A DNA stretch of 64,000 nt, taken from NCBI RefSeq assembly GCF_003018255.1, contig NZ_CP027440.1, one strand, 5' to 3'. A program made the translations under genes and the position numbers. Under the pieces are notes generated by a model. It saw only the letters and a program-made list of their open reading frames with translations. It did not search any database and was not told the origin of the DNA. How positions within the stretch are numbered: the stretch's first letter is position 1; every line of letters begins with the position of its first letter. Of the stretch, positions 16,639-56,947 are shown piece after piece. Source of the DNA: Escherichia coli. Lineage in GTDB: Bacteria > Pseudomonadota > Gammaproteobacteria > Enterobacterales > Enterobacteriaceae.

Positions 16639-20703
<4,065 letters not shown>

Positions 20704-20717
20704 AACTCCCATCTGAT

Positions 20718-20749
20718 GCCCGGTAAGCATGTTGTTACCGGGCATTTTT
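20718..20749 (+). terminator. rho-independent terminator of glpACB
   Basis: GC-rich hairpin GCCCGGTAAGCATGTTGTTACCGGGC followed by ATTTTT. Confidence 0.6.
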
Positions 20750-20896
20750 GCGTCCACGATTCCGCGCTCAATGTATACGTTGCAACGCAGTGAAAATTCC
20801 TCTGAAAACGTCTCGCAAAGGCTGAAACTGGCAGATGTCAAAGGCCTGGGATAACCGTAATGTCGCGTTATCATAAATATCAGGTGACGGACAACC

Positions 20897-21856
20897 ATGA
20901 CCGAATCAACAACCTCCTCCCCGCATGATGCGGTATTTAAAACCTTTATGTTCTCGCCCGATACGGCGCGAGATTTTCTCGAAATACATCTGCCAGAGCC
21001 GCTGCGCAAGCTTTGCAACCTGCAAACCTTACGCCTGGAACCCACCAGCTTTATTGAAAAAAGTTTACGCGCTTACTACTAGGATGTTTTGTGGTCGGTG
21101 GAAACCAGCGACGGTGACGGCTATATCTACTGCGTGATTGAACATCAAAGTTCTGCAGAAAAGAATATGGCTTTTCGACTAATGCGCTATGCCACTGCCG
21201 CCATGCAACGTCACCTGGATAAAGGCTATGACAGAGTTCCGCTGGTGGTGCCATTGCTGTTTTATCATGGCGAAACCTCGCCCTACCCGTACTCACTCAA
21301 CTGGCTGGATGAGTTTGACGATCCGCAACTTGCCCGGCAGTTGTACACCGAAGCTTTTCCGTTGGTGGATATCACCATCGTACCTGACGATGAGATCATG
21401 CAACATCGGCGTATAGCTCTGCTGGAACTGATTCAAAAGCATATTCGCGACCGCGATTTAATCGGTATGGTCGACAGGATCACCACGCTTTTGGTTAGAG
21501 GCTTCACTAATGACAGCCAGCTACAAACGCTGTTTAATTATCTGCTGCAATGCGGCGATACCTCCCGTTTCACCCGCTTTATTCAGGAGATTGCCGAACG
21601 TTCACCACTACAAAAGGAGAGATTAATGACTATTGCTGAACGGCTACGGCAGGAAGGACATCAAATTGGCTGGCAGGAAGGTAAATTAGAAGGCTGGCAG
21701 GAGGGGAAATTGGAGGGTTTGCAGAAAGGCAAAGTAGAAGGTATGCATGAACAAGCCATTAAAATTGCCTTGCGCATGCTGGAACAGGGCTTTGAACGTG
21801 AGATTGTGCTGGCGACAACCCAACTCACTGATGCTGATATTCCGAACGGTCATTAA
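20897..21856 (+). pseudogene. yfaD: Rpn-family (PDDEXK nuclease-like, YhgA-like) protein gene interrupted by an in-frame TAG at 21080-21082
   Basis: Two same-frame ORFs (20897-21082 and 21089-21856) separated only by TAG. Translation across it reads ..[34 protein letters not shown].., a continuous Rpn N-terminal motif as I recall the family. The 255-aa downstream ORF in the track begins at a TTG. Confidence 0.55.
21626..21856 (+). CDS. candidate intragenic C-terminal small protein of the Rpn gene (76 aa, same frame)
   Basis: Internal ATG at 21626 preceded by AAGGAG with 6-nt spacing (..caAAAGGAGagattaATG..); encodes [39 protein letters not shown]...; the same SD+ATG block is duplicated at ypaA. 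Confidence 0.35.
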
Positions 21857-21868
21857 AAGGAGAGATTA

Positions 21869-22042
21869 ATGACTATTGCTGAACGGCTACGGCAGGAAGG
21901 ACATCAAATTGGCTGGCAGGAAGGCATGCATGAACAAGCCATTAAAATTGCTTTGCGCATGCTGGAGCAGGGCATTGATCGTGATCAGGTGCTCGCGGCC
22001 ACTCAGCTAAGCGAAGCCGATCTGGCAGCGAATAACCACTAA
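21869..22042 (+). CDS. ypaA: free-standing Rpn C-terminal-tail small protein (57 aa)
   Basis: ATG at 21869 with AAGGAG at 21857-21862; [57 protein letters not shown]. Its first ~70 nt are identical to 21611-21680 inside yfaD. Below the 60-aa ORF-track cutoff. Confidence 0.6.
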   Translation: MTIAERLRQEGHQIGWQEGMHEQAIKIALRMLEQGIDRDQVLAATQLSEADLAANNH

Positions 22043-22049
22043 TTAACAC

Positions 22050-22079
22050 AGGCCCACAGCCGATCCCCATGGGCCTTTG
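22050..22079. terminator. hairpin between convergent ypaA and rhmA (possible bidirectional terminator)
   Basis: AGGCCCA...TGGGCCT stem followed by TTTGA. Confidence 0.35.
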
Positions 22080-22082
22080 ATA

Positions 22083-22886
22083 TCAATAACTACCTTTTAC
22101 GCGTGGCCCATTTTTGCCTGATTTAAACATCGCCAGTCGTTGATCCAGGGCATCGCTGTAGAGCATCGTGTCAACGCCAACAGCGACAAAGTTCGCTCCC
22201 CACGCCAGGCATTGCTGCGCCATATCAGGAGCCACAGCCAGAAAACCAGCCGCTTTACCCGCAGCACGGATCCGCCGAATGCTGGTTTCAATAATTCGCT
22301 GCACTTCCGGGTGCCCGGCGTTATCCGGGTAGCCCAACGACGCAGAAAGATCCGCAGGTCCAATAAACACGCCATCAATCCCTTCAACATCGAGGATTTC
22401 GTCCAGGTTATCCAGTGCCGTTTTACTTTCCACCTGCACCAACAGACAAAGCGAATCGTTGACTTGCGCCATGTAATTCTCAATGCGTCCCCAGCGCGCA
22501 GCCCGTGCCACACTGGCCCCAACACCACGCTCACCGTAGGGAGGATAGCGCGTGGCAGACACCACCTGACGTGCCTGATCGGCAGTATCGACCATTGGGA
22601 TCAGTAGAGTTTGCGCGCCAATATCCAGGACTTGTTTAATCAGCGGCTTACTGCCTTCCACCGGACGGATCACGGGGTGGCTGGCATAGGGCGCTACCGC
22701 CTGTAGCTGGTGATAAAGATCCTGAATGGTGTTTGGCGCATGCTCCCCGTCAATCAGCAACCAGTCATAACCGGAAGTGGCGGCAATTTCTGCCATATAG
22801 GCAGTCGTTGAGCTTAACCACAGACCAATTTGCACTTCGCCCTTGCGTAAACGTTCTTTAAAGGGATTGGTTAATAATGCGTTCAT
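22083..22886 (-). CDS. rhmA: 2-keto-3-deoxy-L-rhamnonate aldolase (HpcH/HpaI family)
   Basis: 267-aa ORF starting [26 protein letters not shown]; class II aldolase fold motifs. Confidence 0.9.
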
Positions 22887-22902: not shown

Positions 22903-23990
22903 TTAATGATGTGCCACGTCGGTCTGCGCAACAGTGCGATTTACACGCAGAGTGAAAATAATCAGCGAACCGATGACCGCCACCGCTGCCAGCGTCAGTA
23001 ATCCCGCCGCATCGCTGGAAAATAACGTTTCTGCTTTCACGCGCAGGATCGGGGCAATAAACCCGCCCACTGCACCAAACAGGTTTATAAAACCAATCCC
23101 CGCAGCCAGCGCCGTACCGGAAAGAAGCTGTGTCGGCATCGTCCAGAACACTGGCTGTACGGCAATAAACCCGATGGCTGCAACACACAGCGCAACGATC
23201 GCCAGTAATGTCAGCGCCGCGACATTACGCCGCTCGCCGGTTTTATCGGAATAGCGCGGAATAAGCCAGGTCCCAAACAAGGCCGCGACCCACGGAATGG
23301 CGGTGACCACCGACGCCGTAAAGCCCACTTTTGTCCCCAACAATGCAGCAACCTGCGTCGGCAGGAAGAAAATTAATCCGTAAACCGCCACCTGAATGGT
23401 CAGGTAGATAATCGCCAGTTGCCAGACTCGGCCATTACGCAGCGCATCGCTCAATCGAGAAGTCACTTTCTGTTGTTCTTCACTTGCCAGTTGGTTGATA
23501 AGCAACGTTTTTTCTTCTTTACTCAGAAAACGTGCCTGCTCCGGCGTGTCATCAAGCCAAAAGAATGTGAATACCCCAGCGCCGACTGCCAGCAATCCTT
23601 CAATCACAAACATCCAGAACCAGCCGGGATGCCCCATAAATCCATGCATCTCCAGCAGCGCGCCGGAAAGCGGTGATCCCAGTGTTAACGCCAACGGTGC
23701 GCCCATATAGAACAGCCCCATAATGCTGGCGCGATTACGCTGCGGAAACCATTGCGAGGTGAGATAAATCATACCAGGGAAGAACCCGGCCTCCGCAGCA
23801 CCAAGCAGAGTACGAACGATCAGAAATTTCGCTTCAGTATCGGCCCATGCCATGGCTGCCGAAAGAAATCCCCACAGCAGTGTTGTCGTACCAATCCAGG
23901 TTCTTGCCCCCAGTTTGCGCATCAAAAGATTCGCCGGAACACCCAGAAACGCATATACCACAAAGAAAATGCCTGCTCCCAGACCAGCCC
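22903..23990 (-). pseudogene. rhmT: L-rhamnonate transporter (ACS-family MFS), N-terminally truncated
   Basis: ORF 22903-24039; the MFS sequence begins only at ..GLGAGIFFVVYAFLGVPANLLMRKLGAR (the TM2 region). About 50 N-terminal residues including TM1 are missing, and the 5' end of the ORF overlaps rhmR' in another frame. Confidence 0.55.
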
Positions 23991-56895: not shown

Positions 56896-56947
56896 TAGCA
56901 TGCTTCCAGTTTTCTCAGTCAGAGACTGAGCGTTAATCGAAATTCGG

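Follow-up and report, generated by a model that had tools for sequence, protein, structure and literature searches.

Does an Rpn-family gene whose reading frame is closed after 61 residues by an in-frame stop represent a sequencing error, a gene that is read through or restarted, or a natural knockout, and what would such a lesion leave of the gene's products? The question is raised by the rpnE (yfaD) locus in a stretch of 64,000 nucleotides (hereafter the window), a part of the E. coli chromosome that extends from gyrA through nrdAB, glpTQ, glpABC, rpnE, ypaA, rhmA, arn and men to nuo. Gene names around the finding follow the RefSeq annotation of matching genomes. We consider it highly probable that a single C-to-A transversion, converting Ser62 to an amber codon, has inactivated rpnE in a natural lineage of E. 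coli.

The interrupted rpnE frame and its ancestral state

The rpnE gene lies between glpC and ypaA/rhmA, the position that it also has in K-12 and in strain 104. When translated in one frame on the + strand, from the ATG at 20897 to the TAA at 21854-21856, it comprises 319 codons with a single internal stop; the translation of 20897-21856 begins with MTESTT and ends with PNGH before the terminator. The parts of the frame are as follows.

20897..21082, + strand: 5' fragment of rpnE, codons 1-61 followed by the premature TAG; specifies a peptide of 61 aa in which Asp11 is the only catalytic residue
21080..21082, + strand: amber codon 62 of rpnE; A at base 21081, where the ancestral allele has C (TCG, Ser62)
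21083..21856, + strand: downstream codons of rpnE, 63-319, with the TAA; includes Asp63, Glu82, Gln84, the remaining part of PF04754 and the C-terminal tail

With Ser62 restored, the protein matches the Pfam family PF04754 (Transposase_31, YhgA-like) over residues 8-209 with E = 1e-87, a profile match that places it in the Rpn/YhgA-like family. The NCBIfam equivalog for RpnE, NF007418, matches residues 1-318 with 707.6 bits against a cut-off of 583, and TIGR01784 scores 172.7 bits (cut-off 52.1). Because the PF04754 and NF007418 matches span both sides of the stop, the two halves are parts of one gene, rpnE; the NF007418 score and the conserved chromosomal position assign it to the RpnE orthologue group. 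The TAG at codon 62 interrupts what would otherwise be a full-length RpnL frame and, on the evidence of that frame, the rpnE of the window is a pseudogene of the Rpn family and not a functional member. A PDB sequence search with full-length RpnE returned nothing at E <= 0.01, and PADLOC gave only a weak, irrelevant match.

The sequence around the stop is GCT TAC TAC TAG GAT GTT TTG TGG TCG GTG GAA. Aligned with one another, the five K-12 paralogues show S/S/S/S/T at position 62 and the same D in all five at position 63, with [VIL]L[WY]SV after it; as judged from this alignment, the conservation of the motif around the stop is far beyond chance. The original prediction, that an amber codon splits an Rpn open reading frame inside a conserved motif, is borne out by the translation, the domain matches and the paralogue alignment, and the translation that it quoted is reproduced exactly.

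To place the stop among its relatives, we compared positions 20860-22060 with 5,426 complete E. coli genomes by megablast. No perfect match to this query is present among them, and at least 30 genomes match at 1,200 of 1,201 positions (99.9% over the full 1,201 bases). The sole difference between the window and strain 104 in the 1,201 nt is base 21081, A in the window versus C in strain 104, and the frame from 21083 to 21856 is otherwise identical to intact alleles. Since otherwise identical alleles carry C at 21081, the guess that a single-base TCG-to-TAG change had produced the stop was right, as the comparison with the at least 30 near-identical genomes confirms. The stop at codon 62 is also recent, judging from the alignments, because no other difference from intact alleles occurs across rpnE-ypaA.

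The amber codon as a natural allele

A window that departs from its nearest intact alleles at one base only is also what an isolated miscall would produce, in which case the true base at 21081 would be C and the gene intact. This explanation is confronted by records from nine different samples in which the TAG is read in DNA with flanks 99.98-100% identical to the window: ERZ28579877, ERZ1754311, ERZ1755316 and ERZ916638, the last a human gut metagenome, and SRR36161698, SRR13450396, SRR1951444, SRR33953905 and SRR7947255. The same A would thus have to be a miscall in nine different runs and metagenome assemblies, and it also occurs in the separately assembled allele of the SC418 type described below. 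The exact 61-aa N-terminal product (P0001) is present on 22 public contigs. Because nine separate-sample records carry the same A with near-identical flanks, we give a sequencing or assembly error practically no chance. A sense codon at 21081 in the reads had been named as the observation that would overturn the original prediction; the opposite is seen, as independent assemblies of different runs carry A. The codon-62 TAG is a real, inherited allele of a natural lineage and not a base-calling error.

This is a rare allele. With a 51-nt query that had the A at its centre and so seeds only where the A is present, the codon-62 TAG was found in one of the 5,426 complete E. coli genomes, that of strain SC418. 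The lesion is already known from this public genome (NZ_LR778147.1, H1D11_RS10770), where RefSeq/PGAP annotates rpnE as a pseudogene with an 'internal stop'. The codon-62 allele makes a known accessory gene into a nonsense pseudogene of an ordinary kind, restricted to its lineage.

Two further sets of short proteins were considered in this connection and set aside. Short N-terminal RpnE fragments (50-85 aa) had suggested frequent pseudogenisation, and proved to be gene calls cut at contig ends, wild-type in sequence and stopping at arbitrary positions. A K-12-like 61-aa fragment occurs on 72 contigs, many of which are not TAG alleles, with L016-L022 ending at or beside codon 62; the SC418-type TAG allele was therefore counted only from L013-L015 and SC418. 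Six contigs from other samples (L009 and L017-L021) end at ...TACTACT, one base short of 21081. Such ends are the pattern expected from a branch in the assembly graph of a sample containing both alleles, and query selection contributes to the pattern of contig ends at 21081.

Predicted products of the interrupted gene

RpnL/RpnS genes encode an intragenic toxin-antitoxin system that also acts against phages (Zhong et al. 2023, PMC10400941; Kingston et al. 2017, PMC5350276). Internal start sites and RpnS proteins have been shown for all five K-12 rpn genes (PMC10400941; bioRxiv 10.1101/520783), each RpnS also having a promoter inside the gene, and RpnS blocks the toxic RpnL in the case of RpnA, RpnB and the plasmid-encoded RpnP2 (PMC10400941). 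The K-12 ypaA gene is a second copy of RpnE_S and its product has been detected as protein (PMC10400941). The window resembles K-12 rpnE (b2244) and ypaA in the synteny glpC-rpnE-ypaA-rhmA, in the PF04754 domain with catalytic residues at the same positions, and in having an internal small-protein start with a ribosome-binding site, a duplicate ypaA and four-amino-acid repeat variation. Unlike that of K-12, its long frame is broken at codon 62, leaving small proteins only, and its tail is 20 residues longer (319 versus 299 codons).

Ribosomes that initiate at the ATG at 20897 would stop after 61 residues and should yield no full-length RpnE_L, which by analogy would be a PD-(D/E)XK nuclease and the toxin in the RpnL/RpnS scheme of toxin-antitoxin action and defence. 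The location of the stop relative to the catalytic residues determines what any downstream product could do. In RpnA, each of the substitutions D11A, D63A, E82A and Q84K abolishes activity, and the D63A protein is inactive in vitro (PMC5350276). In the K-12 paralogue alignment, RpnE carries D11, D63, E82 and Q84 at the same numbers as RpnA, so that the PD-(D/E)XK residues are present by alignment, with their requirement known for RpnA alone (PMC5350276). The TAG directly precedes Asp63, with Asp11 upstream of the stop and Glu82 and Gln84 downstream. The proposal that the catalytic core lies downstream therefore holds for Asp63, Glu82 and Gln84 but not for Asp11.

Two codons shortly beyond the stop could in principle reopen the frame.

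21089..21100, + strand: candidate restart codons, TTG at 21089-21091 (codon 65) and GTG at 21098-21100 (codon 68)

The in-frame TTG at 21089 had been pointed out in the original prediction and is indeed present, as codon 65; it opens a 255-codon open reading frame ending at 21856. The GTG at 21098 is the start used by public gene callers for a 252-aa product (P0017). If ribosomes stopped at the TAG and restarted at one of these codons, a truncated RpnE (residues 65/68-319) might keep some function, for instance as an RpnS-like partner. The two codons follow the stop at distances of 7 and 16 nt, the 252-aa product is predicted by gene callers, and the C-to-A change itself creates an AGGA at 21081-21084, four nucleotides 5' of the TTG. 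Restarts after early amber mutations are, moreover, classical in E. coli lacI. Against this, the predicted anti-Shine-Dalgarno pairing before the TTG is weak, at -4.3 kcal/mol in the mutant compared with -8.7 kcal/mol at the RpnE_S and ypaA starts, and barely altered from the -3.6 kcal/mol of the wild type; nor is there any sign of selection on the restart frame. The product would also lack Asp11 and Asp63, each of which is essential in RpnA (PMC5350276), and nuclease activity is not expected of it. Since a protein started at TTG65 or GTG68 lacks both residues, it rebuilds no active site, and suppression or reversion is the only way to regain one. The suggestion that either suppression or reinitiation could yield the core thus survives for suppression and fails for the TTG restart. 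Low-level synthesis of a restart product is possible, but the product should be catalytically dead, and we regard a restart product with retained function as improbable.

Suppression deserves separate consideration, because short of reversion nothing else would give the TAG allele an intact active site. An amber suppressor tRNA or programmed recoding could produce useful amounts of full-length RpnE, and the frame downstream of the TAG is still fully open, as it would be in any case because the mutation is recent and unaccompanied by other changes. A recoding site should, however, be conserved, and the stop is missing in orthologues: the TAG is found in 1 of 5,426 genomes, the nearest alleles have TCG and the paralogues have S or T at this position. 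The codon is therefore not a conserved recoding site. TAG also serves as the ordinary terminator of menF in the same window, and ARAGORN found no tRNA gene within the 64,000-nt window. Amber suppressors are seldom found in natural E. coli isolates, and background read-through of UAG is well below 1%. We therefore judge useful read-through to be extremely unlikely; background read-through would give traces of full-length RpnE at most.

Premature termination at codon 62, the reading that we prefer, does not touch the small proteins encoded at the 3' end of the locus and in the adjoining gene.

21626..21856, + strand: RpnE_S, internal in-frame open reading frame of 76 aa starting at codon 244; intact, with the exact protein represented by P0046
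21869..22042, + strand: ypaA (RpnE_Ss), a 57-aa second copy of the small protein that stands as a gene of its own; intact, with the same site AAGGAGAG
21612..21681, + strand: copy 1 of a 70-bp perfect direct repeat, containing the ribosome-binding site and the RpnE_S start
21855-21924: copy 2 of the 70-bp perfect direct repeat, containing the ribosome-binding site and the ypaA start
21648..21753, + strand: tandem 12/24-nt repeats, which encode the variable four-amino-acid repeats of the RpnE tail

The ribosome-binding site AAGGAGAG of RpnE_S is at 21614-21621, and intact alleles have the very same frames and AAGGAGAG sites for both RpnE_S and ypaA. At each of the two starts, pairing with the anti-Shine-Dalgarno sequence is predicted to be -8.7 kcal/mol. 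The ypaA protein (P0031) is found on 849 contigs in public data. A putative internal start, a ribosome-binding site, a small C-terminal protein and four-amino-acid repeats, the features that mark RpnL/RpnS genes, are thus all recognizable at this locus. Variation of such repeats in Rpn proteins has been described (PMC10400941). In L005, L006 and L010, which are siblings of the TAG lineage, the 243 bp between the repeat copies are gone, giving an rpnE'-ypaA fusion and a 233-aa gene call, and Zhong et al. describe the same type of repeat rearrangement (PMC10400941).

RpnE_S, by homology the probable cognate antitoxin of the long form, and YpaA probably continue to be produced, as antitoxins that lack their cognate toxin, because their K-12 counterparts use their own strong ribosome-binding sites and a short transcript with its own internal promoter. 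A consensus scan of 20700-22100 found no sigma-70-like promoter, so the internal RpnE_S promoter rests on the published K-12 data. From sequence and analogy, the most likely state of the locus is one in which the long form, the toxin, is dead and its antitoxins are orphaned.

The expected phenotype would be mild and would amount to losing any contribution of RpnE_L to defence or recombination. Overexpression of K-12 RpnE caused no toxicity, SOS induction or increase in recombination, and the protein was inactive in every assay (PMC5350276); the RefSeq name of K-12 RpnE is 'inactive recombination-promoting nuclease-like protein'. The K-12 RpnE constructs used in these assays probably co-expressed RpnS. 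Loss of RpnE_L may be close to neutral. The cited Rpn literature contains no report of antagonism between RpnE_L and RpnE_S.

The importance of the allele extends little beyond correct annotation. Automatic gene callers produce two separate genes of 61 and 252 aa at this locus, and the proper annotation is not two 'transposase' genes but an rpnE pseudogene with an internal stop, together with intact RpnE_S and ypaA. The allele is also a tidy natural case of an intragenic toxin-antitoxin gene that is toxin-null and antitoxin-retaining, and isogenic TAG and TCG strains would be a handy natural pair with which to probe the chromosomal role of RpnE_L and the roles of RpnE_S and YpaA when free of the toxin.

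Other inactivated rpn alleles and the surrounding region

The rpnE pseudogene of SC418 carries the same TCG-to-TAG change at codon 62. Unlike the allele of the window, to which it is 96.5% identical, it has 323 codons and a K-12-like N-terminus (FTPETARD, compared with FSPDTARD in the window). The differences nearest to the TAG are 32 nt upstream and 73 nt downstream of it. Gene conversion as the source of the TAG common to both alleles was considered and set aside, as it would require a tract of less than 105 bp; independent mutation is therefore more economical, and an independent origin of the two TAG alleles is most likely on this pattern of differences. The loci L003 and L013-L015, which carry the SC418-type TAG allele, share an identical block of 2,272 bp (rpnE'-ypaA-most of rhmA) with flanks that differ by up to 1.3%. 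This arrangement indicates that the TAG had one mutational origin within the SC418 group, followed by recombination, which would have either spread the block between backgrounds or replaced its flanks.

Long-frame loss by other routes was found through proteins that start at GTG68, the search that brought in the frameshifted alleles (L038, L039 and L040 among the loci). An S56N allele has a run of seven A residues (equivalent to about 21056-21064 in the window) and is intact in 40 complete genomes, and slippage from A7 to A6 in this allele is present in five complete genomes, for example F829 (NZ_OY754443.1). The rpnE of BUCT2930 (NZ_CP059723.1) shows slippage from A6 to A5. Both genes are PGAP pseudogenes with the note 'frameshifted'. 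As in the window, the long frame of F829 and BUCT2930 is lost in a lineage-restricted manner and the small open reading frames are kept, with lesions 15-20 nt upstream of codon 62; unlike in the window, the cause is homopolymer slippage and not a base substitution.

An amber codon has also inactivated another Rpn-family gene, the rpnD of K-12 MG1655 (b4584; L034:6999-7919), which is annotated as a pseudogene with an in-frame TAG at codon 104. The likeness to the window's rpnE is the single in-frame amber codon. K-12 rpnD differs in being another paralogue and in having its stop after the E82/Q84 motif and not before D63. RpnD has been reported to be active on overexpression despite the amber codon of K-12 rpnD (Kingston et al., PMC5350276).

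These parallels raise the question of whether the knockout was selected, with a costly or self-damaging toxin lost and the antitoxins kept, and is not neutral. A second, divergent allele (96.5% identical) acquired the same TCG-to-TAG change, two different frameshifts fall in the same 25-nt stretch in other lineages, and at least one small-protein frame is kept in all of these inactivated alleles. In addition, cloned RpnP2_L without its antitoxin quickly gained inactivating mutations (PMC10400941). These points are offset by the rarity of the lesions, which are present in 1, 5 and 1-2 of 5,426 complete genomes, rpnE being intact in most genomes. A single-base change can create a stop in rpnE in 126 ways, and with the very large number of E. 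coli assemblies in databases chance alone should produce a repeated TAG. That lesions cluster near codon 62 is in part a search artefact, because the search used proteins starting at GTG68, and K-12 RpnE showed no toxicity (PMC5350276). We therefore think it unlikely that selection favoured the knockout.

A stronger version would make the Ser62 amber a recurrently selected 'off' state of RpnE_L that is reversible in a single step, with RpnE_S and YpaA as orphan antitoxins and the allele as a maintained polymorphism and not decay. We consider this very unlikely. If true, orphan RpnE_S and YpaA might neutralise related incoming Rpn toxins or serve a separate role.

The region in which the inactivated rpnE lies is of mixed ancestry. 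Over the 25 kb from 9000 to 33999, complete RefSeq E. coli genomes reach 99.3% identity at most, and the glp-rpnE part of the window shares only about 96% identity with K-12. The rpnE-ypaA segment is identical, bar the TAG, to that of at least 30 complete genomes, many of them from chickens or other poultry. By these patterns of identity, the region 9000-33999 is a recombination mosaic.

Two deletions affect the neighbouring L-rhamnonate cluster. In rhmT/yfaV (- strand), a 48-bp in-frame deletion at 23200-23207 lies between 8-bp direct repeats, CGCCAGTA, and is private to the window; the 48 bp are kept in every other locus examined, including the otherwise identical TAG-lineage loci L004-L006 and L010. 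At about 23971-23982, a deletion of 1,727 bp relative to K-12, with a 12-bp junction overlap, has removed rhmD, the 5' end of rhmT and the 3' end of rhmR (yfaX), and the cluster is therefore defunct. The 1,727-bp deletion is common to the related loci L004 and L023. Elsewhere in the window, a nuoG RNA (Rfam RF01748) scores 50.3 bits at 56903-56945 on the - strand, between nuoF and nuoG, an ordinary and expected feature of this region.
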